DNA of 64,000 nt from an uncultured bacterium (GCA_903894955.1 CAITSA010000001.1:3769-67768), one strand, 5' to 3'; shown: positions 2,351 through 49,977, counted from the stretch's first letter. The notes: a model not told the origin generated them from the letters alone. Translations and numbers: made by a program.

Positions 2351-4075
2351 TTAATAAACTTCTTGTTGATAACACCTCTCACAATACACAATCTCTGGTC
2401 TATCTGGAGAATAAGAAGTTTCGAATTCATTAACACATCCTTCTTTCATACACTTTCTATGCCAAAGGTTTAAAGGATTTCTTTGTTTTAATCTCTGGTA
2501 ATGTCTACAATTAGGACATAATCTAGGTAAAGGTAGATTCATCCTTTGGTAGAATTGTAACTCAGCTCCTATGATTTTGAAGGCTTCAGTGCATTGTTCA
2601 TTGCATTCTCCTTTATGTTCACATTCAATGACTTTCCCTACCATATCATCCTTTACTTTTTTAATATCATTAGGAATATCTTCTGTTTTAATGTCTATGG
2701 TATAGTTTCTTTCTTCTCTATCTTTCCATTTAAAACCTTGTTTTAAAGCTTCTTCTTTTGTTAAAGGAAAGTATTCTTGAGCAATGGTTTCGTTGTAACA
2801 GAAGGGTGACAATTCACTTGGAAAGAATTCTCCATATTTGTATATTCTACCCTTACTATCTATATATAGCATATCATTCATATGCTGTATGATTTTTGGA
2901 ACTAATTCTTCGTATTGTTCCTTGGTGTATTGTTTGTTGAGGATGCAGTAGGATTTGTTATGTAAGCCAATGCAACCAAAGAGATTATTACAATTATCAC
3001 AATCGATCGAATATGAAACATTTATTAAATTTAAACCATGTAAAGTACTTAAAATATTAGAACTAAAATCAACATTCAAGGATTCATAAGCTAGTTCTCC
3101 TCCACTAACACCAAAGACATCACTGGTATCTTTTTGTCCCTTAACAGACCTAATACTATATCTAACATTATCAACCTCTGAAACAAAATGAGATTTTTTT
3201 ACATTTCTTGAATTGTTAATAAAATTTCCAGTGACATTAACATAGTTTTTCCCAATCATAAATTTATTAATAGCTTGGCTTTTGACTTTTGTATATTTAT
3301 TAAATAATTCATCAAGCCCATTTTTCAAATTAAGGGAATTTAATAAAGATTCTTTGATTTTAAAAAATTCTTCTTTTGAAACTGGTTTATTTTCAATGTA
3401 AAATTGTTGATTACGAAGATTAGAAGAAAAAAGACAATTCTGACAATTTTTACAATCATATATAAACCAGCAATCTATACAATTTTCACAATCCTGAGCA
3501 AAAAAGGTTTGGTAACAGGTATCAGAATTTATCAACTGAGTTGAAAGTTCACATTTATTTATCCATGAATTATCAACACAATTTTTACTTTCCAAAACAG
3601 TATCACCATACTGACAATTTTCTGAATACCAACTACCAAAAACTAAGTAGCAATCTTTCATATCAACACAAATATTACAATAATCACTTCTTACAGGATT
3701 AACGTTATATAAAGCATATTTTGGAACTTTTTTATCAAGATTATGGAACTGTTCAAAAAATGATTTAGTAAAATCATAATCTACTCCATAATCTCTAGGG
3801 TCCCAATTGTCATCATTTATCCAATATTCTTTATCATAAATTACATAAGGAGATTCGGGAGAATACATACTTATTATTTTTTCTTTAGATTTTGAAGCAC
3901 TATTTTCTTTTTTATATAAAACCCTTTCATTTCTGAATAATAATCTTCGTATTGTTCTACATTCTGGACAAAAAGTCGGAGCAGAAACTTTTATTTTTTT
4001 ATAGAAAGTAAAATCTTCTAGCTCAATTTTAAAGTCTTTTTTACAATTTTGACAAACCTTAGTTTCTACCTGCAT
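2351..4075 (-). CDS. Cys-rich zinc-ribbon protein, paralogue 1 of 3, function unknown
   Basis: 574-aa ORF. The N-terminal module CQNCKKDF..FYKK..FCPECRTIRR is echoed at the C-terminus (FKIIGAELQFYQRMNLPLPRLCPNCRHYQR...YCERCYQQEVY). The centre is full of [ND]C / CxNC repeats. Paralogous to 22579-24303 and 54239-55918. Confidence 0.8.
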   Translation of the reverse strand: MQVETKVCQNCKKDFKIELEDFTFYKKIKVSAPTFCPECRTIRRLLFRNERVLYKKENSASKSKEKIISMYSPESPYVIYDKEYWINDDNWDPRDYGVDYDFTKSFFEQFHNLDKKVPKYALYNVNPVRSDYCNICVDMKDCYLVFGSWYSENCQYGDTVLESKNCVDNSWINKCELSTQLINSDTCYQTFFAQDCENCIDCWFIYDCKNCQNCLFSSNLRNQQFYIENKPVSKEEFFKIKESLLNSLNLKNGLDELFNKYTKVKSQAINKFMIGKNYVNVTGNFINNSRNVKKSHFVSEVDNVRYSIRSVKGQKDTSDVFGVSGGELAYESLNVDFSSNILSTLHGLNLINVSYSIDCDNCNNLFGCIGLHNKSYCILNKQYTKEQYEELVPKIIQHMNDMLYIDSKGRIYKYGEFFPSELSPFCYNETIAQEYFPLTKEEALKQGFKWKDREERNYTIDIKTEDIPNDIKKVKDDMVGKVIECEHKGECNEQCTEAFKIIGAELQFYQRMNLPLPRLCPNCRHYQRLKQRNPLNLWHRKCMKEGCVNEFETSYSPDRPEIVYCERCYQQEVY

Positions 4076-11680: not shown

Positions 11681-12337
11681 ATGATCAAAATACAACCAAT
11701 AGTGCGAGAAATAGTGCTTGGAGAATTAGAGGCTTGTTTTGCTTTAACTAATGGCTATATGAATATGAGCAGTTATGCACATCGCATTCGTCCAAAGGTG
11801 GAGGCCCTCACCAAAAAACAAGTAACTATTACCAGCCTAGTGGTTTCTTTGTCACGCTTACGAAAAGAATTTAAAAAAGAAAAACCTCTGATCCACGATG
11901 TCACTATAAAAAATATAACCACCAAACTCCCCATCTCAGAGATAATCTACGAAAACAACAGTAAATTTATTGAGGAGCTCGAATCATTTTATAAAGAAAT
12001 AGCAGTGACTCCGGAAGACTTTTTTACCATTACTATGGGGACCGCCGAGATTGATATTCTTTGTTCTTCTAATTTAGAAAATAAAGTATTGAAACATTTT
12101 AAAATAAAACCAAAAATTATGAATCATAATTTAGCAGCTATTGGAATTTCCTATGGCTCAGAAGTTTTCGGTATGCCAAATGTTTTCTTTTCGCTTCTTT
12201 CAGTTACCGCTCGAGCCCGCATCAACATAGAAGAGCTCGTCTCTACTCCAACTGAATTAATTTTTATTATTGCTGAAAAAGATTTCAGTCAAACAGTCGC
12301 TTTATTTTCTGAACTACATCGAGAAGTTAATAAATAA
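11681..12337 (+). CDS. hypothetical protein with C-terminal ACT-like domain
   Basis: The C-terminal ~70 aa (LAAIGISYGSEVFGMPNVFFSLLSVTARARINIEELVSTPTELIFIIAEKDF) look like an ACT fold by eye. Divergent from the dap operon. Confidence 0.4.
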   Translation: MIKIQPIVREIVLGELEACFALTNGYMNMSSYAHRIRPKVEALTKKQVTITSLVVSLSRLRKEFKKEKPLIHDVTIKNITTKLPISEIIYENNSKFIEELESFYKEIAVTPEDFFTITMGTAEIDILCSSNLENKVLKHFKIKPKIMNHNLAAIGISYGSEVFGMPNVFFSLLSVTARARINIEELVSTPTELIFIIAEKDFSQTVALFSELHREVNK

Positions 12338-12514
12338 AATTGGCAACAAAAAAAGCATTAATCTCTAAACAATCCTTTCGGAGCTGTGCTCCAAAAGTAA
12401 CAAAATATTATAGGATAGTTCCAGAAACTAATAAAAGTACCAAAACGTCCTATGCAAATTCATATAACCAAGGGCTGATTGCTTAGAGATTAATGCCTTT
12501 TTCAATTGTCAATT
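12338..12514. ncRNA. long-stem palindromic element (candidate structured RNA or elaborate terminator)
   Basis: 12348-12374 AAAAAAAGCATTAATCTCTAAACAATC is near-complementary to 12477-12502 GATTGCTTAGAGATTAATGCCTTTTT. About 100 nt between them carries two inner hairpins (GGAGCtgtGCTCC; ATAGGA...TCCTAT). Confidence 0.3.
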
Positions 12515-14177: not shown

Positions 14178-14663
14178 ATGACACGAATTTTAGGGATAGA
14201 TCCAGGATACGAACGACTTGGGGTCGCTATCTTGGAAAAGAATAAAGGTGATAAAAAAGAAAGAGTGCTTTTTTCGGAATGTTTTAAAACTTCAGCTAAA
14301 TTAAATTTTTCTGAACGATTATTTTTAATTGGCGAAGAAGTAAAAAAAGTAATAAATAAATACAAACCAGAAGTTCTTTCAATTGAAACTCTTTTCCTAA
14401 ACACTAATCAAAAAACAGTGATGAAAGTCGCAGAAGCACGCGGAGTGGTTGTTTATGAAGCTGTCAGCGCTGGATTGAAAATATTTGAAGCTTCTCCTCC
14501 CCAAATAAAAATAGCCACCACGGGTTACGGCCGAGCCAACAAAGAACAAATAACAAAAATGGTAAAAATATTAGTGGACATCGAAAAATCTAAAACCTCT
14601 GACGATGAATTGGACGCTATCGCTATCGCACTAACAGCCCTTGCTTGCCTAAAAATGAAGTAA
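14178..14663 (+). CDS. ruvC: crossover junction endodeoxyribonuclease RuvC
   Basis: ILGIDPGYERLG N-terminus, ...ELDAIAIAL C-terminal acidic motif; 161 aa. Confidence 0.85.
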   Translation: MTRILGIDPGYERLGVAILEKNKGDKKERVLFSECFKTSAKLNFSERLFLIGEEVKKVINKYKPEVLSIETLFLNTNQKTVMKVAEARGVVVYEAVSAGLKIFEASPPQIKIATTGYGRANKEQITKMVKILVDIEKSKTSDDELDAIAIALTALACLKMK

Positions 14664-14758
14664 TACTTTTAAAAACCGCACATAATTTTCTGCTGAAAAT
14701 TTGCTATGCTCGGCTCGCCAGCCTGCGCAATGCTTTTTAAAAGTATTACTTCATTTTT
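14651..14758 (+). repeat. arm-core-arm element, copy A (conserved hairpin CTCGGCTCGCCAGCCT at 14709-14724)
   Basis: 25-bp perfect inverted arms (14651-14675 / 14734-14758). The left arm contains the last codons and stop of ruvC. The 58-nt core shares its architecture with 25589, 49870 and 59225. Confidence 0.7.
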
Positions 14759-14850
14759 AAGTACAAGTTATCCACATTTGCTATTGCCAAGCTTTTTATA
14801 TTTTGATACAAAGTATGCATTAGTAGGAATTTAATAAAAATAAATTTTTT

Positions 14851-14976
14851 ATGTACGATGAAGATGAGGAAATAGATGGGAATTTCAAAATGGGCGTGGA
14901 CGAAGATGAACCGCTCGACATGCCTGATGATCCTGATTTTGGATTAGATGAAGAAGACCCAGACAGAGATGGTTAA
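14851..14976 (+). CDS. possible 41-aa highly acidic small protein
   Basis: My translation: MYDEDEEIDGNFKMGVDEDEPLDMPDDPDFGLDEEDPDRDG*. Followed directly by a strong terminator. No clear SD; below the ORF-track cut-off. Confidence 0.35.
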   Translation: MYDEDEEIDGNFKMGVDEDEPLDMPDDPDFGLDEEDPDRDG

Positions 14977-14980
14977 AAAA

Positions 14981-15010
14981 TAACCCCGTCGCTCGCGAGC
15001 GACGGGGTTA
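14981..15010. terminator. bidirectional terminator, 30-nt perfect palindrome
   Basis: TAACCCCGTCGCTCG|CGAGCGACGGGGTTA flanked by an A-run and a T-run. Shared by the small ORF (+) and tyrS (-). Confidence 0.8.
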
Positions 15011-16210
15011 TTTTATTACAATTTTCACAAATCTTTTTTTACCAATTTTAAGAGTTAAGTTTTCTGAAATTTTTAAGTTTACGTCTGTTATATTTTTATC
15101 ATTTAGTAAATCATGAACTGCGTTTTCTAAAACAAGTCTTCGCCACTCTCCTTTAGAGGATAAAATCTTATTTTTTACTAAAATTTCGCTCAACATTTCT
15201 CCGGTTTTAACTTTTATTTCCTTTATTTTTTCTGGAATTTCCTTTTTTTGAAAAGTATTCACAAAATTCTCTTCTGCTTTTTGGGCATCTTTTACAGAGT
15301 GATAAAAGGAGATAATTTTTTTAGCTAAAATCTTTTTAAATTCCATTGGATTTTCTCCATTTTTTAAGGAATTTTCTATCTTCGCTATTTCACTTAAGTT
15401 TAAGTCTGTTGTCAGTAAAAAATATTTTGTAATAAGTTCATCTTTTAAAGACATTATTTTCCCGAACATTTCATCTGGGGTATCAATAACAGAAATTATA
15501 TTTCCCCAAGAAGAAGACATCTTACGTCCATCTGTCCCCTCGAGCATAGAAAGAACCATAATATCTTGTTCTTTTTGCCCGTATCTTTTTTGAACAGTTC
15601 TCCCTGCTTTTAAATTAAAAAGTTGGTCAAACCCCCCAATTTCAACATCTGAATTAACAGCCACGCTATCATACCCCTGTAAAGCAGGATACATAAATTC
15701 AACCATAAAAACATCTTTACCCGCATCCAATCTTTCTTTAAAATTTCTTCTTTTTGTCATTTGTTGCACAGTAAAACATTCCAACAACTGACCTATCTCC
15801 GGAATACTCATCCCTTTGAGCCATTCAGAGTTATATCTAACTTCTACCTCTTTCATATCCAAAATAAGATTAATTTGTTCCAAATATTTTTTTAAATTAT
15901 TACTTATTTGTTCATCGGTTAGCATTGGTCTTTTTTCTAATTTATCTGATGGATCTCCAATTTTTGCAGTAAAATCACCAATAATTAAGACAATATGATG
16001 CCCTAAATCTTGAAAGGCTTTAAGTTTAAGGAGGGTTACCGCTCGGCCGAGATGAATAAAAGGACTTGTTGGGTCAATGCCAAGTTTAATTCTTAGTTGT
16101 TTTCCAGAACTTAATCTTTCTTTTAAGTCTTCTTTTATAAAAATATCTTCCACCCCTCGACTTAAAACTTCTTTTATTTTCTTTTCATCTGTTATGACTT
16201 TCACCCTCAA
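15008..16210 (-). CDS. tyrS: tyrosyl-tRNA synthetase
   Basis: GIDPTSPFIHLGR (HIGH-type), IGDPSDK, KMSSS (KMSKS-type), C-terminal S4-like tail; 400 aa. Confidence 0.75.
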   Translation of the reverse strand: MRVKVITDEKKIKEVLSRGVEDIFIKEDLKERLSSGKQLRIKLGIDPTSPFIHLGRAVTLLKLKAFQDLGHHIVLIIGDFTAKIGDPSDKLEKRPMLTDEQISNNLKKYLEQINLILDMKEVEVRYNSEWLKGMSIPEIGQLLECFTVQQMTKRRNFKERLDAGKDVFMVEFMYPALQGYDSVAVNSDVEIGGFDQLFNLKAGRTVQKRYGQKEQDIMVLSMLEGTDGRKMSSSWGNIISVIDTPDEMFGKIMSLKDELITKYFLLTTDLNLSEIAKIENSLKNGENPMEFKKILAKKIISFYHSVKDAQKAEENFVNTFQKKEIPEKIKEIKVKTGEMLSEILVKNKILSSKGEWRRLVLENAVHDLLNDKNITDVNLKISENLTLKIGKKRFVKIVIK

Positions 16211-21820: not shown

Positions 21821-21840
21821 TGTTGATAAGCTGTGGATAA
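21821..21840 (-). promoter_or_regulatory. two adjacent DnaA boxes upstream of dnaA
   Basis: TGTTGATAA (21821-29) and TGTGGATAA (21832-40, perfect complement of TTATCCACA). Confidence 0.6.
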
Positions 21841-25107: not shown

Positions 25108-25590
25108 ATGAAAAAAGAAGAGATTCAAAATTTAATAAAAGATTTAATTGAAAAAACTACAGTAAAATTAAATGGAATTTCGATGGTTGATGATGGACCT
25201 AAAAATGTATGGGTTTCAGTGGAAGTCAGTGAACCACATTTTTTTATTGGGCACGATGGTGATGGCTTGCACGCATTAAGTCACCTTGTTCATAGAATCA
25301 TAGAAGCTAAAACTCCTCGTGAAGAAAATTCTCTACCTCAACAAGGGTTAGGTATTATTATTGATATAAATGGTTTTCAGAAAAAACATATTGAGAATAT
25401 TCGTGCAGTAGCCCATATGATGTCAGAACGAGCAAGGTATTTCAAGTCTAATATAGAAGTTGACCCAATGTCCGCTTTTGAACGTAGAATCGTTCATGAA
25501 TTTTTAGCCGAATCAAGTGATCTAAAGACTGAATCTATGGGAATAGGGCGTGATCGCCGAGTGGTGATTAAATATATAGGAGCGATTTAA
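25108..25590 (+). CDS. jag: Jag/SpoIIIJ-associated KH + R3H RNA-binding protein
   Basis: C-terminal R3H context ERRIVHEFLAE...GRDRRVVI; follows yidC. Confidence 0.8.
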   Translation: MKKEEIQNLIKDLIEKTTVKLNGISMVDDGPKNVWVSVEVSEPHFFIGHDGDGLHALSHLVHRIIEAKTPREENSLPQQGLGIIIDINGFQKKHIENIRAVAHMMSERARYFKSNIEVDPMSAFERRIVHEFLAESSDLKTESMGIGRDRRVVIKYIGAI

Positions 25591-25731
25591 AAATATAAAT
25601 ATGACTTTTTCCGGTACGGATTTTTAGTCGCACCAAAAGGACTTGCGCGACATGATTCCGCAGAATCAAAAATCCTGAAGTTCTCGGCTCGTCAGCCTCG
25701 AAACCCCTTCAAAAGGCATATTTATATTTTT
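25589..25731 (+). repeat. arm-core-arm element, copy B (conserved hairpin CTCGGCTCGTCAGCCT at 25683-25698)
   Basis: 15-bp perfect inverted arms AAAAATATAAATATG / CATATTTATATTTTT. The core matches copy C except for an enlarged first hairpin. Confidence 0.7.
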
Positions 25732-27159: not shown

Positions 27160-28278
27160 TTAAATTATGGATATTGTTGTTCCTGTTTTTATGCAGGGGG
27201 CAAGTAGAGTTAAGTCGTCATTACTCATTCTAATACAACCGTTGGTTGTTCCTAAGGTGTCTTGTTCGTTTCCGTGAAAGCCGATGCCTCTATCGTTGCC
27301 AGAAGAATCTTTTGCGCCAATATTAACAAAAGCAGCACCCAAATTATAACCATTGTTCGAGATAACAGCATTTCCACTGTTCCCCAGCCTTATGTCCCCA
27401 CTTGTAGTAAAAGTTCCTTTTGGAGTTTTACTATCCCCACTCTTTGCTTGGCCAACTTCTGCTACTCCTTTATATCCAAGATTTACTGGAACAGAAACAC
27501 AACTTGATCTGGAACAAAAGCTGGCCTGTTTGGTAGCGGTATTTACTGTAACTTTACTTAATGATGAGCAACTGTTGTTGGCAAAATCAGTAACTCCCGA
27601 ACTAGGAGTTCCACTTAATTTATATCCAGTTCCCACAGAGGCTGTTGTCTGCTCTGTAGCAGCAAAATTTGCCTGGTCTGCAGTTACTGTTACTGTTACA
27701 CTTGTTAAATTTTTTAAACTACTATCAAGCAAATTAGGATTTATTGCGTTAAGAAGGGTCCAAGCACCTAGTGCCAAAAGGAGACCAAAAATTGCATTTC
27801 TAATTCTTTCCTTGCCTGCTTCTTTACTTGAAATCAATTCGCTCGTCATATATTCAATACCACCCACGACAATCATTATTACAGCCAAGACAGCGCAGAT
27901 ACCAATGAAGAGTTTTATCATCATATTTAAATATCCACTAAAAGCACTACTGTCACCTGTTGGGACATTACTCATTGTTCCACCGGCAGGATTGGGTAAT
28001 GGAGCTAAAAGATTATAATTTGAATTTGCTGGAGTTGTTGTTGGAGTTGATGGTGTGTATCCCCCCGTACATCCAGCTGGTGTATAAGCTCCAGTGGGGT
28101 CTACTCCTGTACATGTCACTGTTCCTGTTATTGGCGTTGTTGATGTACATCCATCTGGTGTGGGAGTGTTAGTTACTACATTGAAACCTGTACATGTTTC
28201 GGCCTTTACTTCTCTCATCGGGCCAAAAAACCCGATTGATACGATGAGTATTAAAATGTAAATTGAAATTTTTTTCAT
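27160..28278 (-). CDS. VirB2/TrbC-like pilin segment fused to a YkuD-type L,D-transpeptidase domain
   Basis: Signal peptide. Two-helix hydrophobic hairpin (MIKLFIGICAVLAVIMIVVGGIEY...AIFGLLLALGAWTLLNAI). C-terminal TPKGTF...GFHGNEQDTLGTTNGCIRMSNDDL (H..G..S/T.GC[IV]R motif). Confidence 0.6.
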   Translation of the reverse strand: MKKISIYILILIVSIGFFGPMREVKAETCTGFNVVTNTPTPDGCTSTTPITGTVTCTGVDPTGAYTPAGCTGGYTPSTPTTTPANSNYNLLAPLPNPAGGTMSNVPTGDSSAFSGYLNMMIKLFIGICAVLAVIMIVVGGIEYMTSELISSKEAGKERIRNAIFGLLLALGAWTLLNAINPNLLDSSLKNLTSVTVTVTADQANFAATEQTTASVGTGYKLSGTPSSGVTDFANNSCSSLSKVTVNTATKQASFCSRSSCVSVPVNLGYKGVAEVGQAKSGDSKTPKGTFTTSGDIRLGNSGNAVISNNGYNLGAAFVNIGAKDSSGNDRGIGFHGNEQDTLGTTNGCIRMSNDDLTLLAPCIKTGTTISII

Positions 28279-28283
28279 TTGAT

Positions 28284-29267
28284 TTAAAATTCTATATTAA
28301 TTTCTTTGGTGGCACTCTCGAAAATTTTCTCTGTATTATTAATTTCTAATCTTATATTAGATGTTCCAGAAGTTCCAGTCTGTACTTGGAGTGGCATAGT
28401 ATTTTTCATATAAATCGGAGGATTTACCGTTTCGTCATTAATAAACCAATCCCAGGTAAGGAACGAAATTCTGATGTCGCCCGGCGATATGAAATATGGG
28501 GCGGCTACCAAAATTTCACTGTTTACTATTTTATGGCCATCGTCAAGAGCTTGTTCCCAAAGTGTTCCGAGATTAGTATCATTTTTGTAAAATATAATTT
28601 TTGGTTTTACCGTTCCAATATCCATACTTGCTGTTGAAGAATATTTTTGATCAATAGTTGAAGCAGTTACTCCAATATTATTTGAATCTTCCAAATAATC
28701 ATTTACATAAGTAAAAGAATTCTTTCCATAGCCTGAACCATCTGGATTATTGGAAGAATCTCTCTGCCAACTATAAGTCATGTTTTTAGGGTCTACTAGA
28801 TTAGAGCCTGATTTTATTTCAGGGATAGCAACAACTTTTACCGTACTATCAGGTGAAGGCAACGCCTTTCCTTTATAAAACGGAGGAACATAAGAATCCA
28901 TTGCTTGATAGAGCAAGACCATCACATTAGGCCTTATTGTTATTCTGGTGTCTGTTGCTCCATCTGGGAGAGACACAGTAGCGACAACACTTGTTTCCTC
29001 TCCTGCATTTGGAGCATTAAGAGAAAAAGATTTTTTCCCAATTTCAGATGAAACGTTTTTACCATTTACAGACCAAGAGATTAAAACACTATCTAAGTCG
29101 TAATTATAACTTTTTAAGGTAATATCTACCCCTTCACCAGGGGCTGGGTTTTCTGGTGCTATGTTAACCGAAATTCCAATAGAGGGAACAGCCTTTACTT
29201 TAAAAGGTAAAAAAGTTCCGAATATTATAATTACTGTAATTAAAAATGGTAAAAATTTAAACCTCAT
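28284..29267 (-). CDS. secreted protein, unknown function
   Basis: Signal peptide MRFKFLPFLITVIIIFGTFLPFKVKA; beta-rich. Confidence 0.7.
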   Translation of the reverse strand: MRFKFLPFLITVIIIFGTFLPFKVKAVPSIGISVNIAPENPAPGEGVDITLKSYNYDLDSVLISWSVNGKNVSSEIGKKSFSLNAPNAGEETSVVATVSLPDGATDTRITIRPNVMVLLYQAMDSYVPPFYKGKALPSPDSTVKVVAIPEIKSGSNLVDPKNMTYSWQRDSSNNPDGSGYGKNSFTYVNDYLEDSNNIGVTASTIDQKYSSTASMDIGTVKPKIIFYKNDTNLGTLWEQALDDGHKIVNSEILVAAPYFISPGDIRISFLTWDWFINDETVNPPIYMKNTMPLQVQTGTSGTSNIRLEINNTEKIFESATKEINIEF

Positions 29268-29288
29268 ATTTTAATTGTATCATATCTA

Positions 29289-31163
29289 CTACTTTTCAGT
29301 CACATTTATTGTTTGCCCTGTTGCTGTGGGGGTTTCTTGCTCTTGTTTGGCTTTTTTGTTTAATAATATTTGTGAAGGATCGGAAGTAATGATCTGGTCC
29401 TCGGTATAAGAAGAGACTATTTTTATAGCAACATGTTTTAATCCTGCGAAAAAGATACCTTCCCCTAACCCAGATTCTAAAAGTAAATATTTCTCTTCAT
29501 CAGTGAGATTAAAAGTTTTTTGCAGGATATCAATTGTGGTTGGTGATTGTTTTAAAAGAAGCTGGATAGAGGAATTCGTAATGATTGGTACTCCATAAGG
29601 AGATTTCATGAAGTCGGCTGCGTCTTGGGTAATAGTAGAAAGACCCAAATAATATTTTCGTCCTCTTTTGGCAATAGAGTACAAGAATGAGGCTGTGTCT
29701 TCGGACTTCATCATCCACCAAGCCTCATCTACTACGAGTAAGCGTTTTTTTAAATTTTTGCGTATGGCATTCCAAATATAATGCATAATGATATACATGG
29801 CGACTGGTTTTAATTCGTCTTCCATGTCGCGCACAGAGAATACCACGAACTTTTTATTAATATCTACGTTCGACGGTCTGTTTAAAAAAGTTGCCCAAGA
29901 ACCTCTGGTGTATTTTGCCAATCTAGCAACAACTGAATCACTTCCATCCATTCCAGAGAGCACCATTTCAAGATCTGAAAGAAGAGGAGGTTCAATATTG
30001 AAAAAATCCGATTCCGGAGTTATGTCTTTTATGGCATAAGTTTCAGAGATAGCTCGGTCTACCATTGAATCTTCTTCTGGAGTGAGTCCACCCAACATCA
30101 ATCTGAAAAGACCTACTAAGTTAATGATATTTGAACGCAAGACATCTTCTGCAGTCTCATCTTCGCGAGGGATAGGTAAATCAAATGGGTTTAGATGGTG
30201 GTCTGAAGAAAGTGAAATATTAAAATATCGTCCACCTACTGCTTCAGCTAAAAATTCATATTCTCTTTCTGGGTCGATCACAATGACATCGGTATCAAAC
30301 ATGAGTGACCTTAGAATTTCTAATTTTGTTGCGTAAGATTTTCCAGAACCAGATTTAGCAAAGGTTACGGAGTTGTAATTTTCTAAGGAAAATCTATCAA
30401 AGATAACTAAGCTCGAGTTGTTTCTATTGATACCATAAAGTATTCCTTTATCAGAAGTAAGATTAGAAGAAATAAATGGGAAAACACTCGACAAGGGGTC
30501 AGAATTTAATTTTTGGTGAATATTTAATAAATCTGTTTCTATTGGAATGACGCTTTTGAAACCTTCTTCTTGTTGAAAAAGTGCTGGTTTTATATAGATA
30601 AGTTTTGATTCCAGCATTGATTTTATTTCATTTTCTATCTTGAAAAGTTCGAAATCGTTGTCTGCATAAATCGTGATATAAATACCAACATCAAACATCT
30701 TTTCTTGCGCTTGAATTAAGTTATTACGAAGTTCTTCAAGGTCTTGGTAAGCAGTGTCGAGCATTGGGTCTCGGACCATTCCTTTTGATTCTCGGACATT
30801 TATTTGGCTTTGTACTTCAGCAACTTTTTTCTGAAATTGTCGTAGCATTAAAGAAGTGTCTATTGGGTGAATGAAGATTGAAATATCAAAAATTTTATCC
30901 AAATTAATTATTGGAGAAAACCAATTATCCGTTAAAAATCTAGGATAAGATATTATAAAAAAAGTACGGGCAATTTTGTCACCTAGGTTTATAGATTTCG
31001 GGTCAATTTTTAAGGCTGATGGGGCAATGACATCTTGAAGTTCTAGGTTTGCCGACTCATAAATTTTTTCTGGTAAGACCGCCAAAACAGAAGCCCGAGG
31101 TCCCTCTCCTTCAGTTTCTTTTCCTTTTCCAAATAATTTTTTAATGTCTTCTAAAATACTCAT
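29289..31163 (-). CDS. VirB4/TraC-type T4SS ATPase, ATPase portion
   Basis: Walker A AKSGSGKSYATK, Walker B LLVVDEAWWMM, ...GLSTITQD... Confidence 0.8.
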   Translation of the reverse strand: MSILEDIKKLFGKGKETEGEGPRASVLAVLPEKIYESANLELQDVIAPSALKIDPKSINLGDKIARTFFIISYPRFLTDNWFSPIINLDKIFDISIFIHPIDTSLMLRQFQKKVAEVQSQINVRESKGMVRDPMLDTAYQDLEELRNNLIQAQEKMFDVGIYITIYADNDFELFKIENEIKSMLESKLIYIKPALFQQEEGFKSVIPIETDLLNIHQKLNSDPLSSVFPFISSNLTSDKGILYGINRNNSSLVIFDRFSLENYNSVTFAKSGSGKSYATKLEILRSLMFDTDVIVIDPEREYEFLAEAVGGRYFNISLSSDHHLNPFDLPIPREDETAEDVLRSNIINLVGLFRLMLGGLTPEEDSMVDRAISETYAIKDITPESDFFNIEPPLLSDLEMVLSGMDGSDSVVARLAKYTRGSWATFLNRPSNVDINKKFVVFSVRDMEDELKPVAMYIIMHYIWNAIRKNLKKRLLVVDEAWWMMKSEDTASFLYSIAKRGRKYYLGLSTITQDAADFMKSPYGVPIITNSSIQLLLKQSPTTIDILQKTFNLTDEEKYLLLESGLGEGIFFAGLKHVAIKIVSSYTEDQIITSDPSQILLNKKAKQEQETPTATGQTINVTEK

Positions 31164-31191
31164 ATAATTGTTGTGATGTTAAGCTCGTAGT

Positions 31192-31830
31192 TTACTCTAA
31201 TCTAACTTTTCCTTCTACTTCTCCTGGGTTGAAAACTTTATAAAATACTTCTACCACTTCTTCGGTGCCGAGCTGAGCTGAATTTATACCACAACGGGAG
31301 AGCCCTTGTTGAATAACTGATACCCTTTCTTCTAATTGGGACCTTTTTTCTTCAAAAGCTACCTGTTGAGCTGCCTTTATTTCCGCTTTATTTTTTGAAG
31401 AAAATATTTTGTCGATGATTCCAGAGTCTGATTTTAAGGTGGTATGAGTATAAGGGACTACTATAAAAAAGTTTTTTGTCATAATGGCAACAGAGTCAGT
31501 AAAATTTTTAATAAAGTCTATATATTCTCTGGTTTGTAATTTTAAAAGAGGTTCATTTTGCACTTTGATTCTATTTTCCAAAAGTAAAAGATAAGGTCGA
31601 ATATCAAGCCTTCTTGATTGGATTGATATTTGGATAGAAAAATCTAAAGTATTTAGAAAATTTTGGAATTGCATTATTGTTGCTTGTTGCTCGTCGGTTG
31701 ATTTTAAAGATAAATTTACTGAGTTGGCAAGTACAATTGCTCGGAGCTCGTCGTTTTTTAGCACGACTATTCCATCGCGGACTTCCTTAATAGGTACGAA
31801 TTCTTGAGTTGCTTTTGCATTTAAGGCCAT
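31192..31830 (-). CDS. VirB4 N-terminal-domain-like protein (separate ORF)
   Basis: FVPIKEVRDGIVVLKNDELRAIVLANSVNLSLKSTDEQQATIMQFQNFLNTLDFSIQISIQSRRLDI resembles the N-terminal domain of Gram-positive VirB4 homologues. 28-nt gap to the ATPase ORF. Confidence 0.55.
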   Translation of the reverse strand: MALNAKATQEFVPIKEVRDGIVVLKNDELRAIVLANSVNLSLKSTDEQQATIMQFQNFLNTLDFSIQISIQSRRLDIRPYLLLLENRIKVQNEPLLKLQTREYIDFIKNFTDSVAIMTKNFFIVVPYTHTTLKSDSGIIDKIFSSKNKAEIKAAQQVAFEEKRSQLEERVSVIQQGLSRCGINSAQLGTEEVVEVFYKVFNPGEVEGKVRLE

Positions 31831-31838
31831 ATTATTTA

Positions 31839-32285
31839 TTACTTATTATTCTCTTTTTGTTTACTTAAATCTAATATATCCAAACTCCAAGCTAAATCTC
31901 GTAACTTACTCCCGCTTAACTGGTCGCCTTCTTTTATCATTTGAACTTTATTTGTATTATTATTTTTTTCCCCGCCCGCATCGCCTTGCGAAGCATGGCG
32001 GGCAGGTATACGTTTTTTCCAGATGTAAAGTTTATTTTGGGTAAAATATTTAAAACTTGATTCTAGCATATTCACAAAAGGTTTATTATTTGGTTTATAA
32101 AAAGTAAGGGTTAGAGAAAATCCAGCCATGATTAAAATCGGGATTGCTCCCATCACGAGACCTAATAATTTATACAATACAAAACATAGGCCTGCTCCTC
32201 CTGCCAAGTAAATAAATTCCCTAAAAGTAAAAGGACCAAATATTTTATCTTCAATATCTAAAAATTGTGGAACTTTGAATTGCAT
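31839..32285 (-). CDS. PrgI/VirB3-like small membrane protein
   Basis: MQFKVPQFLDIEDKIFGPFTFREFIYLAGGAG followed by two TM helices; directly upstream of the VirB4 ORFs. Confidence 0.6.
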   Translation of the reverse strand: MQFKVPQFLDIEDKIFGPFTFREFIYLAGGAGLCFVLYKLLGLVMGAIPILIMAGFSLTLTFYKPNNKPFVNMLESSFKYFTQNKLYIWKKRIPARHASQGDAGGEKNNNTNKVQMIKEGDQLSGSKLRDLAWSLDILDLSKQKENNK

Positions 32286-32566
32286 CCCGTTAGAGATAGG
32301 AAGCGCCTAATCTATTTTTAAGATAACGCTTGCCCATTCCTGATTTTAAAAATAACTCTCTCGACCTCGCTTTACTTTTTAATAAGCACCCTTCGTAGTA
32401 TATCAAAATAAATGGGCCTCGTCCTTTCGTATATGTAGATAAACCTTTATTGTGCTGACTTAGGCGCTTTCGTAGGTCTTGCGTATATCCCGTATAAATT
32501 TTACCGTCCTTCTTACTTTTTAAGATATATGTGTAATAAAACATAAGTGATCTCTAACGGGATGCA
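32281..32566 (-). mobile_element. GIY-YIG gene cassette bounded by 17-bp perfect inverted repeats
   Basis: TGCATCCCGTTAGAGAT (32281-32297) and ATCTCTAACGGGATGCA (32550-32566) are exact reverse complements. Between them lies only the GIY-YIG ORF. Confidence 0.65.
32290..32544 (-). CDS. GIY-YIG nuclease-domain protein (short, UPF0213-like)
   Basis: YYTYILKSKKDGKIYTGYTQDLRKRLSQHNKG; 84 aa. Confidence 0.8.
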   Translation of the reverse strand: MFYYTYILKSKKDGKIYTGYTQDLRKRLSQHNKGLSTYTKGRGPFILIYYEGCLLKSKARSRELFLKSGMGKRYLKNRLGASYL

Positions 32567-32569
32567 TGA

Positions 32570-33190
32570 TTATTCATCTGGTGACAAACGATATGGATCT
32601 GCCTTAGGTGGATAAGAGGCAGCAGATGTTAGATTTTTCAACGAGTGCTCAGTTTCTACTACCTCATTTTTAACATAACCAGATAATTTTTGGGCTAAGA
32701 TTGGAGGGGGAGTTGGTAACTCTGTTTTTTTAGGTTCATTTATTGGTGATGTGGGGATAATTTCAATTCCAGCAGAACTTAATATTTTAGCATTATTTTC
32801 TGCTTCTTCTTTAGTCTCAGGGATTTCTTCTGGCCCTTGTTTTTCTACAGATACTTTTTTATTTTCAATAATTTTAATTAAATTTTCTTTTATTTTTACA
32901 AAAACTCGGTCATTCATTTCTTTTACTAAATCATTAACTTCACTTTTTTGGAGTTTTAGCCTTTTTTCTATTTCTTTTGAATAGTTTTCAGGGATAATAA
33001 GCCCACAAAGCACTAATTCTGTTTCAATTTCTAGATCTTCTAATTGTTCGAAACTGTATCCTTTTTTCTCTCTCATTCCTAAAACCACTGATTTCCAATC
33101 AACGGCGTTGATAGCATTTTGGGTATCTTCCGGCAACCCTGCTTTTGCTTTCTCAATTTTTATTTGTAGTAAATCTTTTGTATCGTTCAT
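32570..33190 (-). CDS. hypothetical protein, paralogue of 33223-33786
   Basis: Shared N-terminal ~110-aa domain (..NAINAVDWKSVV...LEIETELVLCGLI.PENYSKEIE / ..DVINTFGWEKIT...FQVETLLILTGLEDPNSYAKNIE). Pro-rich tail. Confidence 0.7.
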   Translation of the reverse strand: MNDTKDLLQIKIEKAKAGLPEDTQNAINAVDWKSVVLGMREKKGYSFEQLEDLEIETELVLCGLIIPENYSKEIEKRLKLQKSEVNDLVKEMNDRVFVKIKENLIKIIENKKVSVEKQGPEEIPETKEEAENNAKILSSAGIEIIPTSPINEPKKTELPTPPPILAQKLSGYVKNEVVETEHSLKNLTSAASYPPKADPYRLSPDE

Positions 33191-33222
33191 ATCATTATTA
33201 TACCTTATGTTAATAATTTATT

Positions 33223-33786
33223 TTACTTTGGCGCAGAACTTGTTGGTGAAGGTTTCACTCCTTCGTTCATATCAGTGATTTTGGTTTTTTGACTATTGGC
33301 TCTTATGTCAACCAGTCTTGGGGTAATCATTGGAGAAGTAGGTGTTTTGTTTGTTTCTATAGATTCAGGAGTAGTTTCCCTTTCTACTATAAAAGCGGAA
33401 TAGTCTCCACCGGATAGGATAAAATTAAGATTTTGTTCCGTGTTTGACGTCATAAACACCCAACCCTTTTTAACATTTTGTATTAGAAGATCGTTAATTG
33501 GAGTAAATATTTTTTGTACAACTTCGTTGGTTATTTTTTCAGCTTCGTCTTTACTGGTACCAACATTGCTTTCAATATTTTTTGCATATGAATTTGGATC
33601 TTCCAAGCCAGTTAAAATTAAAAGGGTTTCAACTTGAAAATTAGTTAATTTACTTTCGTTAAGTGAATACTCTCTACCAACTTCTTCTGTTATTTTTTCC
33701 CAGCCAAAAGTATTAATCACATCTTGATTTTCTTTTGATAATTTTCCAACTTCTTCTTTAATTGTTTGTTTTAATTTACCAGTCAT
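33223..33786 (-). CDS. hypothetical protein, paralogue of 32570-33190
   Basis: See the partner entry above. Confidence 0.7.
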   Translation of the reverse strand: MTGKLKQTIKEEVGKLSKENQDVINTFGWEKITEEVGREYSLNESKLTNFQVETLLILTGLEDPNSYAKNIESNVGTSKDEAEKITNEVVQKIFTPINDLLIQNVKKGWVFMTSNTEQNLNFILSGGDYSAFIVERETTPESIETNKTPTSPMITPRLVDIRANSQKTKITDMNEGVKPSPTSSAPK

Positions 33787-33792
33787 AATTTT

Positions 33793-36198
33793 TTATTTTT
33801 TTTCTTCTTGTATACTTGCACGAATTTTATTTGCAGCTTCATTGGCTCCACGATGTAAGGCATACTCGCCTCCACTAAATATAAAGTTCAAAGCTCTGCT
33901 TCCACTACCCTCTAATTTTTCAGCATACTTTGTTTTTCTCTCTCTATTTACTCCAACGACAGCATTTTCTGCTACCTTTAGAGCAACTTCTGCTGTATGA
34001 GTATCACTCCCTGCATCTCTAATATCTTTTTCTCTGGTAAGCACAAGTTGTCTTGTATTAGTTTTTTCTCCCTGCAATCTAACTTGTTCATCAATAGCAT
34101 TTTTTACTCTAGCGCTTTTCCCTGTTGGGTCTGCGGCCTGTGCCGCCTTCAGTTCTCTTTCAGCATCAGCAAGATCCCTTTCTGCTTGGGTGGCAGCTCT
34201 TTCTAATTGCTTTAGGCTTTGTCCTGCTCCTTCTATAGGATTACCATCCTTGTCGAGAGTCCCCGCAGTCCCTTCGGTTAGTGCTAATATTTGTGGCGCT
34301 GCCGCTATTTTTGCCGCCTGAAGTTTGCCTTCTTTCTCTCTAACAGTTTGCATTTCTTTCTCGTCCTCTCCGACTTCAATTTCTTTTGCCCTTTCCATTC
34401 TCTTCTTTACATCTTGTTCTCTCCTTTCTTTAAATCCTCCCTTTTGTGCTTCACCGACTTTCATACCAGTTGCTGATGCCAAAGTTTTACCCCCAATGCT
34501 TGCCCCGCGAACATCAAAGCTTCCACTTTGCATCTTTTTAAACCCAGACATGGCAGCTTCTCCACCAAAACCACTTGCCTCCCAATTCTTTGCCCATCGA
34601 GAGTTAGCCATAGCAGAGCCTGCCCTTCCAGCAGTTGCGCGACCAACTTTTGCAGCTCCAATTGCTGTTGCCCCCAAAGCAAGTCCGCCTGCTATCTTTG
34701 CGCCTTTAAAAATTGCTTCCCCTAATTCCCCGGATGCTTTTTTAGCAAATTTAGTTGCTTGAAGAAGAAGAATCAAAACCAAAAGTGCTGGTATAACAAG
34801 GAGCACTATAGCTTCTAGTGTTGATTGATCCTTAAAATTGCGAACTGCAAGACTAGCAAATAGATCTGCTTTTACAAGTAAAAATATTAAATATAGAAAA
34901 AACATAAAAATTGGCGCCATAAATGCCACTTTAAGTAAACGTTTAGACCAAGCATCCCATCCTAAATATTCAACACTACTAAAAATTGGAAGGGTTGAAG
35001 ACATAAAAGCAAAAGGAGAAAAGATAATTAAAATCCAAAGTTCAATTAATCTACTTAAAAAACAAAAACCTGCTATAAAGAATGCATATGCAGCAAAAGC
35101 CATTATTAACCCACTTATAAGAATTATTCCAATCATAAAAGGAGCAGGAATAGCATTTGAAGGAATGAATGAATAAGCGAGGTAGGCTGCAGTTGCCACC
35201 CCTGCACCAACAACCCCTCCGAAAACAGCTCCAGTGCCCGCAGTTGCTGCTGTACCAACCATAGTTGGACGTGAGGAAGTTTGTTTTTTAGCTTTGTCAA
35301 AAAATTCCTGGGTTAACATTTCTCCTGGCTTAAAGGCCTTGGCTAATCCACCAGCAAAATCTTTTTCTGTATTTCCAGTTTTTGTTGGGTCTGTAATTGG
35401 TTTATATTCTATATTTGTGGCTGTTGTTCCAGTCCCTATCTGTTGATTAACATTAATTTTATTATAAAAAATTAAAGCTAAAATATTTGATGTATCAATA
35501 ATTACTTCAGTGAAAAACATAGAAAAGTTTATAAGCAAAGCGACAACTATCACCTTGACTATCATTTTTTTAACATCAGCTCCCCCCAGCCCTAAAATAA
35601 CTTTAATAGCTATATAAAGGAGAATAAGGATAAAGAAAATATTAGAAAGATCACGCACAACTGCCCAAGCATTAGGAATGAAACTAGATTTGGTATACAA
35701 GGCACTGCTTAACGTAATAGACAATAATACATCTAAAAATTCTGCAGCTACACTCAACAGTAAACTGGGAACTGTATAGAATACAATATAAGTTATTTTA
35801 ACCAAGCAACCTTCCAAGCTACTACTCCCAATTACACCGCAAGACTGTAGATTGTTTTCAAGTGCACTGTTGCCAGTTGATCCTATGTTATTAGGATCTC
35901 CTGCCTTACCACTACACGCTTTTTGAGCAGCGGCTGTTTGTGCAGCAACATCCTTATTCCCTTTAGCATCCACCATTCCACTATTTATAACAGTTTGATC
36001 TGTTATACACTGTGTGTATTCACTTGCACTTGCTTTTCTCACTGGACTAAAAAGTCCAACGAAGACGATAAGCAGGATTATTCCCAATACTAAAATTTTA
36101 CTCTGCTTGCCCCATAGTGAATGTTGCTCTACTATTGGGGTAGTTTCTGATTTTGAATTTCTGGTAGTAGAATTTTGGTTTATTAAATCTTTTATCAT
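33793..36198 (-). CDS. polytopic membrane protein, VirB6/TrbL-like, with long Ala/Lys/Glu-rich C-terminal tail
   Basis: At least 8 predicted TM helices after a Cys-containing extracytoplasmic segment. Sits in the T4SS-like locus. 801 aa. Confidence 0.5.
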   Translation of the reverse strand: MIKDLINQNSTTRNSKSETTPIVEQHSLWGKQSKILVLGIILLIVFVGLFSPVRKASASEYTQCITDQTVINSGMVDAKGNKDVAAQTAAAQKACSGKAGDPNNIGSTGNSALENNLQSCGVIGSSSLEGCLVKITYIVFYTVPSLLLSVAAEFLDVLLSITLSSALYTKSSFIPNAWAVVRDLSNIFFILILLYIAIKVILGLGGADVKKMIVKVIVVALLINFSMFFTEVIIDTSNILALIFYNKINVNQQIGTGTTATNIEYKPITDPTKTGNTEKDFAGGLAKAFKPGEMLTQEFFDKAKKQTSSRPTMVGTAATAGTGAVFGGVVGAGVATAAYLAYSFIPSNAIPAPFMIGIILISGLIMAFAAYAFFIAGFCFLSRLIELWILIIFSPFAFMSSTLPIFSSVEYLGWDAWSKRLLKVAFMAPIFMFFLYLIFLLVKADLFASLAVRNFKDQSTLEAIVLLVIPALLVLILLLQATKFAKKASGELGEAIFKGAKIAGGLALGATAIGAAKVGRATAGRAGSAMANSRWAKNWEASGFGGEAAMSGFKKMQSGSFDVRGASIGGKTLASATGMKVGEAQKGGFKERREQDVKKRMERAKEIEVGEDEKEMQTVREKEGKLQAAKIAAAPQILALTEGTAGTLDKDGNPIEGAGQSLKQLERAATQAERDLADAERELKAAQAADPTGKSARVKNAIDEQVRLQGEKTNTRQLVLTREKDIRDAGSDTHTAEVALKVAENAVVGVNRERKTKYAEKLEGSGSRALNFIFSGGEYALHRGANEAANKIRASIQEEKK

Positions 36199-36268
36199 TT
36201 TTTTAAATATCTCTTAATCAAAAATTCAGTACGGGACAAGAATATATAGCAAAAACTCTTTTTAAATT

Positions 36269-38875: not shown

Positions 38876-38941
38876 TTTGTTTGTATTATATCTTTTATTT
38901 ACCCAGGAGTGAAGCTTTTTGCTTCTACTCTACTATTGGAT

Positions 38942-39838
38942 TTAATTTTTCAATAATAATTTGGGGATAATTGCATTTTGAAGTTTTGTAACAGCTGATT
39001 CTAATGAGGTAATATTTTTGTCCAATTGATTAATGGCTCCCATGGCCACGATGGGGTCAGTGTCAAAAAGCTTTATATCATTCAGATTCTCCAGCACCCT
39101 TTCTAGTCCATTTAAACAATCAAGATGTAGCTGAGTTAGAGATTGGGGTACATTTAGTTTTAATCCCTCTTCTATTCCACTTTGCATGGGGTTAATTACT
39201 AAGTCTAGTTTTGCTAAGGCTGAAAGATCTACATTATTTTCATCCGCCACGGCCTTTTGCAGGACAGACATCAAATCTTCCTTCATTGGATATTTATTTT
39301 GAATTTTATTCATTGCATTTAAATAACTTATGATAGTTGAGGTACTGTCATCGTTGATTATTTTGAGATCAGAGGTTGTAAAGACTTTTCGAACAACAGG
39401 AGTCCCAATTTTTTCAGCCAAAGAAGCTCCTAATGCGTCTACTGTAGTTTGATCCATTGTTCCAGTTTGGCTTTCGGCAGCTACAGTGGCGAAAAGCTCT
39501 CTAGAAAATTGTTCGGTTTTAGTTAGTTTTTCTGGTTCTGTGGAAGTAATATCTCCATTTATTTTTCCTGTATTTCCCTCTTCCCCAGCTTGTAATTTAC
39601 TGATGACTGTGCTGTTTGGTATTCCAGGAGTTGTTTCTTTTTTAGTTGGATCAAGTCCATACAAGGATTCCTCCCAATCTGGTATTCCATTACCATTGGA
39701 ATCTTTGTTTACTGAGTCTTCTATGGTTGCGTTGTCAAAAGCCATTAATCCATTGTTTTGGTTGCTTTGAACGAATTTGAGAGTATTTTTAAAGATAGAT
39801 GTATCTCTTATTAAAAAAAGGGTAACAAGAAAAAGCAC
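38942..39838 (-). CDS. membrane-anchored protein with Ca-binding-like DSNGNGIPDWEE motif
   Basis: N-terminal hydrophobic anchor. The D-x-N-x-N-G-x-x-D-x-x-E motif resembles thrombospondin type 3 repeats. Confidence 0.6.
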   Translation of the reverse strand: MLFLVTLFLIRDTSIFKNTLKFVQSNQNNGLMAFDNATIEDSVNKDSNGNGIPDWEESLYGLDPTKKETTPGIPNSTVISKLQAGEEGNTGKINGDITSTEPEKLTKTEQFSRELFATVAAESQTGTMDQTTVDALGASLAEKIGTPVVRKVFTTSDLKIINDDSTSTIISYLNAMNKIQNKYPMKEDLMSVLQKAVADENNVDLSALAKLDLVINPMQSGIEEGLKLNVPQSLTQLHLDCLNGLERVLENLNDIKLFDTDPIVAMGAINQLDKNITSLESAVTKLQNAIIPKLLLKN

Positions 39839-49865: not shown

Positions 49866-49869
49866 AATT

Positions 49870-49973
49870 CTTTAGAATATAACTTTTTCCGGTACGGATT
49901 TTTCGAAGCTTGAAAAATCCTGAAGTTCTCGGCTCGTCAGCCTCGAAACCCCTACAAAAATTATATTCTAAAG
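49870..49973 (+). repeat. arm-core-arm element, copy C (conserved hairpin CTCGGCTCGTCAGCCT at 49928-49943)
   Basis: 13-bp perfect arms CTTTAGAATATAA / TTATATTCTAAAG. Core: TTTTTCCGGTAC-[GGATTTTTCGAAGCTTGAAAAATCC]-TGAAGTT-CTCGGCTCGTCAGCCT-CGAAACCCCTAC. Confidence 0.7.
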
Positions 49974-49977
49974 ATAT

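Follow-up and report, generated by a model that had tools for sequence, protein, structure and literature searches.

Why is the end of ruvC repeated, in inverted orientation, just downstream of the gene? The question arises in a 64,000-nucleotide (nt) stretch of DNA from an uncultured bacterium (GCA_903894955.1, CAITSA010000001.1:3769-67768), the whole of which is hereafter called the window; the organism is a Paceibacterota/Nomurabacteria-like bacterium. ruvC is the open reading frame (ORF) at 14178-14663, and the Pfam RuvC domain was present in all of its homologues. Its end lies within a perfect inverted repeat (14650-14675 / 14734-14759) whose 26-nt arms are 100% complementary and have 58 nt between them. 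The left arm, TAAAAATGAAGTAATACTTTTAAAAA (14650-14675), holds the last four ruvC codons (L K M K) and the TAA stop codon. The initial annotation of the window already placed the last codons (K M K) and the stop there; it also gave the arms as perfect and 58 nt apart, which is right, and as 25 nt long, which is one base short. It left two readings, an element that homes to the loops of terminators or an insertion that creates an inverted duplication of its target. We compared the locus with occupied and empty sites in other genomes, designated below by L numbers. The repeat is one copy (copy A) of a widespread family of non-coding, mobile double hairpins, and its arms were, on balance, probably made by a polymerase that copied the adjacent host DNA as its reverse complement.

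Copy A consists of the following parts.

14650-14665, + strand: outer 5' arm, native host DNA comprising the end of ruvC, the TAA at 14661-14663, and 2 further nt
14666-14675, + strand: left terminal inverted repeat, A-type (CTTTTAAAAA), common to all A-type copies elsewhere
14676-14733, + strand: core, 58 nt, GC-rich, from the alignment of 105 copies and the consensus fold of 60
14676-14683, in the core: 5' segment, CCGCACAT
14684-14701, in the core: variable hairpin P2, AATTTTCtgctGAAAATT
14702-14708, in the core: linker, TGCTATG
14709-14724, in the core: CTCGGCTCGCCAGCCT, with P3 formed by GGCT (14712-14715), the loop CGCC, and AGCC (14720-14723)
14707-14709 with 14727-14729, in the core: P3b, the 3-bp stem at the base of P3
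14725-14733, in the core: 3' segment, GCGCAATGC
14734-14743, + strand: right terminal inverted repeat, A-type (TTTTTAAAAG), common to all A-type copies
14744-14759, + strand: outer 3' arm, a new reverse complement of the ruvC end, missing in element-free relatives

The order of 5' segment, variable hairpin (in copy A, AATTTTC-tgct-GAAAATT), linker, conserved hairpin, and 3' segment reads exactly as it had been annotated. As a 120-nt unit, copy A folds into a long hairpin with a Y-shaped tip on both strands (z = -8.6 and -9.4, equalled by no shuffle), the complementary strand folding slightly more stably than the motif strand.

The ruvC spacer with and without the element

Three relatives, L207, L208, and L209, keep the ruvC-small ORF-tyrS synteny without the element, and their RuvC proteins are 86-88% identical to that of the window. 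Directly after the ruvC stop codon they read CTTATCCACA (also written CTTATCCACATTTGC and CTTATCCACATTTGCTATTGCC), with no hairpin; the best inverted repeat near the stop scores 6-8, vs 26 in the window. In the window, the stop codon is followed by TAC-TTTTAAAAA, the 58-nt core, TTTTTAAAA-GTA, TTACTTCATTTTTA, AGTACAA, and GTTATCCACATTTGC. The net addition amounts to ~103 nt, made up of an 82-nt block (the core plus both 10-nt terminal repeats and, directly outside them, a palindromic TAC/GTA) and ~21 nt that include the reverse complement of the last 14 ruvC nt. The ruvC end itself (..AAAAATGAA[G/A]TAA) is present in L001, L003, L007, and L008, with or without the core.

The right arm, which L207-L209 lack, reads as the ruvC end reverse-complemented, as template switching would have it, and no direct repeat was seen when copy A was compared with these three empty sites. 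Element-free ruvC 3' regions had been chosen beforehand as the comparison that could overturn the creation of arms by insertion, and no hairpin was found in them. The inverted target duplication suggested at the outset therefore stands insofar as the flank has been copied anew, in inverted form, into the right arm; a transposition step is one possible source of it, and template switching during replication gives the same pattern.

The same spacer has other occupants. An A-type core fills it in the opposite orientation in L003 and L007, and another subtype, with different arms, is found there in L035. Counting the L001/L002 element described next, the spacer has been occupied independently several times. 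L001, the closest core-less relative (RuvC 93%), carries with L002 an unrelated palindromic element in the ruvC spacer (3487-3660). The left "shell" motif of the D-type copies described below recurs in its arms (CCCCACCCCTTTCTTGGTAT.. / ..ATACCAAGAAAGGTGTGGGGG), and a direct TTATCC repeat on its two sides looks like a classical target duplication of the DnaA box. A perfect DnaA box (TTATCCACA) lies at 14767-14776, directly 3' of ruvC, and is kept in all relatives (L001 and L207-L209), element or not. The small ORF of this region (14851-14976) encodes a very acidic 41-residue peptide (MYDEDEEIDGNFKMGVDEDEPLDMPDDPDFGLDEEDPDRDG), has conserved counterparts of 41-43 amino acids, annotated as genes, in L001 and L207-L209, and is followed by a terminator at 14969-15022.

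An artifact of assembly is excluded at copy A, because three independent assemblies of the same species (L004-L006) carry the identical sequence; copies A, B, and D are all as in the window in same-species contigs, with no polymorphism. For the family at large, an assembly or amplification chimera has practically no chance of being the source of the inverted repeats. Metagenome contigs often break inside the element, as a chimera might lead one to expect; against this, the structure is identical in independent assemblies (L004-L006, L215, and L216), it recurs in more than 100 genomes from many projects, and reading frames are kept in the intragenic copies. The contigs that end within the element include L003, L008, L011, L016, L027, L102, L110, and L217, and it seems that assemblies of these genomes often break because of the family.

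A double-hairpin family in Patescibacteria

The motif GGCTCGYCAGCC occurs four times in the window, always on the + strand (14712, 25686, 49931, and 59299), vs 0.05 expected, and a fifth, diverged copy lies within the uvrD/pcrA ORF at about 44399-44512. All five aligned to one family, which bears out the plan first proposed as common to copies A, B, C, and D and the uvrD-internal copy. The other four copies are located as follows.

25589-25731, + strand: copy B (BC subfamily), after the jag/R3H gene, between convergent genes; arms 25589-25609 / 25711-25731, 95% complementary
44399-44512, + strand: copy E (E subfamily), inside the uvrD/pcrA ORF 43491-45560 (minus strand); arms 44399-44412 / 44499-44512
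49859-49984, + strand: copy C (BC subfamily), fills the spacer of the convergent M23 peptidase and ZIP transporter genes
59229-59353, + strand: copy D (D subfamily), after rpsO (S15, 58956-59219)

Copy E is translated in frame within uvrD/pcrA as ..DKGEDLLLRGVSQADGPRGSAVPVGTDSDPTKVTSSHLFE.., and in copy C both neighboring stop codons sit at mirror positions in the arms. Copy D has a conserved outer shell (CTCTTTCTTGGCATAC.. / ..GTACGCCTGCAAC) together with short outer locus-specific arms; the D-type shell also occurs in many other genomes (L023, L048, L084, L096, L118, and others).

A scan of 185,579 species genomes with the query CTCGGCTCGYCAGCCTSSRMA gave at least 118 matches. Among the matches listed, nearly all were in Patescibacteria metagenome-assembled genomes, labelled Nomurabacteria, Paceibacterota, Zambryskibacteria, Minisyncoccia, Parcubacteria, or "Saccharibacteria" (some labels are possibly coarse). 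The few matches in GC-rich contigs from outside the Patescibacteria lacked the family architecture. Carriage by phages was also considered and rejected, the three viral-contig matches being chance occurrences on GC-rich contigs from which the architecture was absent.

In total, 105 distinct copies align as a single family. Subfamily A is CCGCACATAA..GCGCAATGC, subfamily BC is CGGTACGGA..CGAAACCCC, subfamily D is GCAATCTATCT..GCGCAAGGC, and subfamily E is GGGTCGCTGTCT..GCGAGACACCC; there are several minor subfamilies besides. The P2 loop of copy B holds a nested 42-nt insert that itself forms a hairpin (25626-25667), and comparable nested inserts were found in the P2 loop in L097, L125, and L116 and in the P3 loop in L061 and L063. 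No Rfam family matched the element, either with the whole window at gathering thresholds or with copies A, C, and D at permissive E-values, and the Rfam matches seen were only tRNAs and chance miRNA-like hairpins. Literature searches on palindromic, REP-like, or MITE-like repeats (MITEs being miniature transposable elements with inverted repeats) in Patescibacteria, with most subscription journals outside their coverage, returned no description of the element. A double-hairpin family with flank-derived arms is apparently undescribed.

The family plan comprises a 5' segment, the variable hairpin P2, a linker, the conserved hairpin P3 (GGCY-CGYC-RGCC) with its covarying 3-bp base, and a 3' segment. 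The consensus fold and the pair counts, made on 60 non-BC copies, rest on two helices. The seven pairs of P2 all covary without a single break, with as many as four Watson-Crick pair types at a position. Overall, 99.7% of 900 cells are paired, and the covariation score is 0.625 vs 0.13 in shuffles (0/500) and collapses once the partners are slid. At the base of P3 (P3b), TGC/GCA, TTC/GAA, and CTC/GAG alternate. The first two had already been seen to covary, TGC/GCA in copies A and D and TTC/GAA in copies B and C; the covariation reaches further than was then noted, with CTC/GAG in the uvrD copy and others. The P3 stem covaries too in distant copies (GCGC/GCGC, ACGC/GCGT, AGCT/AGCT, and GGGC/GCCC), which keep the CGYC loop and the flanking CTC..T.

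G·U pairs account for only 2/420 variable P2 cells, the changes being essentially from Watson-Crick to Watson-Crick. Near absence of G·U fits templated DNA copying rather than RNA-level selection through G·U intermediates (PMC8794818), and the Watson-Crick-only covariation would be accounted for by template switching. A hammerhead or other small self-cleaving ribozyme was considered and rejected: CUGANGA...GAAA-like boxes are confined to BC, with none in A, D, or E, stem II lacks its closing pairs, and Rfam gave no match even at E up to 5-10.

Locus-specific arms and how they may arise

The best inverted repeat abutting the core was sought in 123 copies with enough flank and at 185 control positions in the same loci. 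The arm score was at least 10 in 107/123 copies, with a median of 16 and a median length of 19 nt, and 27 copies had perfect arms of at least 15 nt; at the control positions, the median score was 6 and the maximum 10 (n=185). Locus-specific inverted arms are carried by ~90% of copies. The innermost part of the arms is specific to the subfamily, being CTTTTAAAAA/TTTTTAAAAG in all A-type copies (such terminal repeats were found in L009, L036, L043, L054, L078, L104, and L121) and ..AACTTTTT/AAAAAGTT.. in BC copies. D-type and some other copies have a conserved asymmetric shell, CTCTTTCTTGGCATAC ... GTACGCCTGCGACGAG, with more locus-specific arms outside it (18/18 in L048 and L074, for example), and the structure is therefore layered. 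The earlier idea that arms are specific to their locus holds for the outer part, which varies by copy, and fails for the inner 10 nt, which are common to all A-type copies and belong to the element. In orthologous copies, the arms are near-perfect despite divergence between the genomes; complementarity within a copy is 0.96, vs 0.85 identity between orthologues, the arms having been chosen by score.

Most copies lie at the 3' ends of genes. In 75/107 copies, an ORF of 80 codons or more has its stop codon inside an arm or within 40 nt of one; 20 copies lie between convergent genes, some with mirror-placed stops (copy C in the window, L093, L100, and L109), and 12/107 lie inside ORFs. Stop codons show no preference between the 5' and 3' arms (22 vs 22), and gene contexts with a gene only 5' or only 3' of the element both occur. 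A fixed polarity, with the 5' arm always native, was accordingly not established. The core lies in opposite orientations in 18 pairs of orthologous sites and in the same orientation in 24, and the occurrence of both orientations at one site matches either the "spacer inversion" of template switching or repeated independent insertion. Because orthologous intergenic sites with different core subfamilies have unrelated arms (L023/L076/L095, and L038 compared with copy D of the window), the arms belong to the insertion event and not to the locus.

Empty and filled alleles were also found in uvrD. At UvrD site 1, there are 12-14 codons when empty (L147, L157, L183, and several other proteins) and exactly 46 in most filled alleles, and the E-type core occurs there both ways, giving the peptide RGVSQADGPRGSA.. 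in one orientation and GSLSPRARGALPLGSSACETP.. in the other. Site 2 (45291-45320 in the window, minus strand) comprises 28 residues (EMRERIIAEIKKNAKGQDKIPFVSTFHS) in most genomes; it is empty in the window (NAKGQDKIPF) and filled, with 49-61 residues, by E-type or A-type-like elements in ~15 metagenome loci and in L069, whose uvrD gene carries two copies of the element. Empty UvrD alleles have no palindrome at either site, and the arms at site 2 look chimeric, each side being partly native. The UvrD loci (n=54) are only ~80% identical in DNA, such that exact insertion boundaries are not readable from close pairs, and a mirror-symmetry profile of the 138-nt alleles was uninformative, the anchors not being symmetric. 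In-frame copies are also present in an RluA-like protein, TsaD, an IscS-like protein, and MnmA. The UvrD alleles have the frame open in both orientations, and the intragenic copies keep the reading frames.

These sites bear on the homing reading, in which the element enters the loops of existing hairpins (intrinsic terminators or older palindromes) and the arms are older than the core. The 75/107 copies that adjoin gene 3' ends speak for it, as do the nested insertions in P2 and P3 loops (25626-25667, L097, L116, and L061/L063) and the D-type shell, which resembles an older hairpin now hosting different cores. The empty ruvC and UvrD alleles have no hairpin, however, and the arms differ at orthologous loci that hold different cores; homing to pre-existing terminators is therefore not supported. 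The arms also include coding sequence of ruvC and UvrD. Almost every long near-perfect inverted repeat in the window surrounds an interior of 49-102 nt, and the sole clear classical terminator (14969-15022, with a GC-rich, bidirectional stem) has no insert. We regard homing as improbable, and for copy A the alleles compared already largely refute it.

An RNA function is about as improbable as a primary explanation. The element would then be a 3' untranslated region module (a terminator, a stabilizer against 3' exonucleases, or an RNase III site) whose stem is kept by selection on RNA. Placement at gene 3' ends, a modest bias of the motif strand toward co-orientation with the upstream gene (37 vs 18, p = 0.014), the A-runs and T-runs that flank many arms, and strong conservation over many genomes are consistent with this. 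A perfect 26-nt stem, however, cannot come from point mutation, G·U is nearly absent, and the arm mismatches favor wobble on the strand opposite the commoner transcript. Twelve copies are translated inside genes, both orientations occur at one site, and a simple terminator scan finds nothing at the element. An RNA function could have been acquired secondarily.

The mismatches in the arms are asymmetric. Read in the motif orientation, A·C or C·A mismatches number 53 vs 16 for G·T or T·G (39 vs 9 by copy). The asymmetry holds with the neighboring gene upstream, downstream, on both sides, or on neither, and in both main subfamily groups; it belongs to the element and not to the host gene. On the complementary strand, the A·C arm mismatches are G·T wobbles, and the asymmetry would follow if fold-back synthesis, or selection of the hairpin, acts mainly on that strand.

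The reading we favor, copying of the flank by a polymerase, can be set out as follows. GC-rich elements of ~55-105 nt, each with short T-run/A-run terminal inverted repeats, P2, and P3 with its CGYC loop, have multiplied in the AT-rich genomes of Paceibacterota/Nomurabacteria-like Patescibacteria, settling where they are tolerated: after stops, between convergent genes, in a 5' leader now and then, and, read in frame, in presumed surface loops of housekeeping proteins. The long arms would be neither carried by the element nor pre-existing, and would instead be copied from the DNA beside the insertion. The terminal stem may let the nascent strand fold back on itself, and the polymerase would copy its own flank for ~10-25 nt and then return to the template (snap-back, or intrastrand template switching). 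The fold-back may take place at insertion or during the first replications after it, and the folded strand would mainly be the complement of the CTCGGCTCGYCAGCCT strand. Later template switching would keep the arms and P2 Watson-Crick, and may lengthen the arms or flip the core. In E. coli, SbcCD, ExoI, ExoVII, and RecJ act against template switching driven by hairpins. Template switching in replication is known to generate reverse-complement copies and perfect stems in one event (PMC8794818) and to homogenize arms and invert spacers (PMC8604942), and arm expansion is described in a further report (PMC13100816).

Several points weigh against this account. None of the loci captured an insertion as it happened. 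Arms are present on nearly all copies, whereas slow growth would leave many arm-less copies; arm-making would then be tightly coupled to insertion, which fits a dedicated one-step mechanism too. The 10th-90th percentile range of arm length, 14-26 nt, hints at a ruler, and the mismatch asymmetry is not an obvious outcome of passive template switching with free flipping. The closest empty ruvC sites have only 86-88% RuvC identity, so that the hairpin could in principle arise first and the core later, and the 24-nt arms of the L035 ruvC spacer correspond to neither flank in the relatives that were compared. The account also offers no route by which the core would reach new loci.

The dedicated alternative is that the insertion machinery itself, a putative nuclease or transposase acting on a folded strand or hairpin intermediate, makes an inverted target duplication of ~10-25 nt in one step. 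It would agree with the ~90% of copies that have arms, the limited range of arm length, the mismatch asymmetry tied to core orientation in all contexts, and the net addition of an arm at ruvC; conservation of the CGYC loop and its flanks beside covarying stems resembles that of a protein recognition site. No transposase was found by Pfam among the 50 ORFs of the window, however, and these ORFs offered no candidate enzyme; the only Pfam matches along these lines were to a YraN-like nuclease, a protein with a NYN domain, and a Xer-like tyrosine recombinase. A long version of the element with an ORF was likewise missing from the ~0.9 Mb of loci examined, where only nested small insertions were seen. 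We know of no precedent for an enzyme-made inverted target duplication, and literature searches on inverted target site duplication gave nothing relevant. The arms at UvrD site 2 look chimeric, and near-perfect orthologous arms despite divergence need continuing correction anyway. We consider this one-step mechanism rather unlikely. With similarly low confidence, the family could represent mobile DNA of a new type, which would insert in the form of a folded single strand (complementary to the CTCGGCTCGYCAGCCT strand) and in doing so generate the 10-25 nt inverted duplication; if true, this would explain the ~90% of armed copies, the bounded arm length, and mismatches that are wobble-compatible on one strand.

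Other features of the window have a related layout or lie nearby. At 1250-1346, a different GC-rich core (CTCGGGTCCTCGGTTCTCCAGGTCCCCTACCCCGGCCAGACCAGCTCC) has 24-nt arms, 92% complementary, ending ..GTTTT/AAAAC.., and is translated in frame as GELKKASFGAGLAGVGDLENRGPEKTLLSLIPP in the DNA polymerase I gene (PolA, minus strand, with the ORF passing the window start). A peptide related to the PolA insert, NGLAGIGTRRTEDLSK, occupies the UvrD hot spot elsewhere, and in L116 a BC-type copy holds, nested within its P2 loop, a core related to the PolA one. At 12349-12502, between the ORF 11681-12337 and ruvB, 26-nt arms that are 92% complementary (AAAAAAGCATTAATCTCTAAACAATC / GATTGCTTAGAGATTAATGCCTTTTT) enclose 102 nt of AT-rich DNA, unrelated in sequence and of the same architecture. 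A type IV secretion/conjugation-like cluster at 27160-39838 encodes a type IV secretion system pilin, a TraG/VirB4-like P-loop protein, and PrgI, and also holds several large ORFs without a Pfam match. dnaA/dnaN lie at 19-21.8 kb, with two DnaA boxes upstream of dnaA (21821-21840). The window allowed no conclusion on a link between the element and replication direction, its GC skew following gene orientation.

Relation to known repeats and significance

The present element resembles Rickettsia palindromic elements (RPEs) and REPs and probably belongs to neither. Like RPEs, it is a small palindromic multi-copy repeat with several subfamilies in a reduced, AT-rich genome. RPEs are often found as in-frame, translated insertions within unrelated housekeeping genes (PMC10969869), and insertions of this kind were found here (12/107 in ORFs). 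The element is in another phylum and is shorter, however, and the likeness drawn here is one of description. Flank-derived inverted arms, CGYC-loop hairpins, and a mostly 3'-end location have, to our knowledge, not been described for RPEs.

With REPs and REPINs, the element shares the form of imperfect extragenic palindromes, mostly at gene 3' ends, that make single-strand hairpins, occur in many copies, and have strand-specific features. In REPINs, it is the arms that carry the conserved repeat, around a variable loop; the present element instead has a conserved interior and local arms, and some of its copies are intragenic. The GTAG head of REPs is found only in a minor variant of its 3' segment, and the 50 window ORFs contained no match to a RAYT/Y1 transposase. 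Bacterial MITEs (Correia, ERIC, RUP, and others) are similar in being small and without an ORF, with subfamily-specific terminal inverted repeats, presence/absence polymorphism, and nested insertions, and the element is, like them, a short non-coding multi-copy repeat with terminal inverted repeats. MITEs are bounded by direct target-site duplications, whereas the flanks here are inverted in 107 copies. They derive from insertion sequences with matching ends, and no such parent was seen in the window or in the ~0.9 Mb of loci.

Nor does the element look like an intrinsic terminator: a consensus scan of 14500-15100 found none at the element, the arms are AT-rich, and the stem encloses 58 nt. 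The Ripley model of template switching (quasipalindrome correction) has in common with it the reverse-complement copy of a flank and perfect stems, which in that model come from one event, and the homogenization, expansion, and spacer inversion of the model may occur here as well. The cases described are isolated short repeats, whereas the present element is a proliferating family with spacers of 55-105 nt. Yeast mitochondrial GC clusters and the palindromes of green-algal organelles are GC-rich hairpin mini-elements in AT-rich compact genomes, sometimes in coding regions, and short direct target repeats have been reported for the yeast clusters. They differ in having organellar hosts and are unrelated in sequence to the present element, whose distinctive trait is the flank-templated inverted arm.

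Patescibacteria hold a large share of bacterial diversity in tiny, streamlined genomes, yet they harbor a prolific repeat family, with five copies in the 64 kb of the window and at least one other family of the same architecture beside it. The elements take up intergenic spacers, extend enzymes of DNA repair and tRNA modification by loops of 30 residues, and break metagenome assemblies. The conserved 16-mer is a marker for these genomes and predicts contig breaks and protein insertions that annotation pipelines misread. If the arms arise as we propose, they would be a natural, large-scale case of DNA copying its own neighborhood as a reverse complement around a seeded hairpin. Hundreds of independent events make testable how perfect stems originate and are maintained, and whether an inverted target duplication may be the signature of a transposition mechanism.

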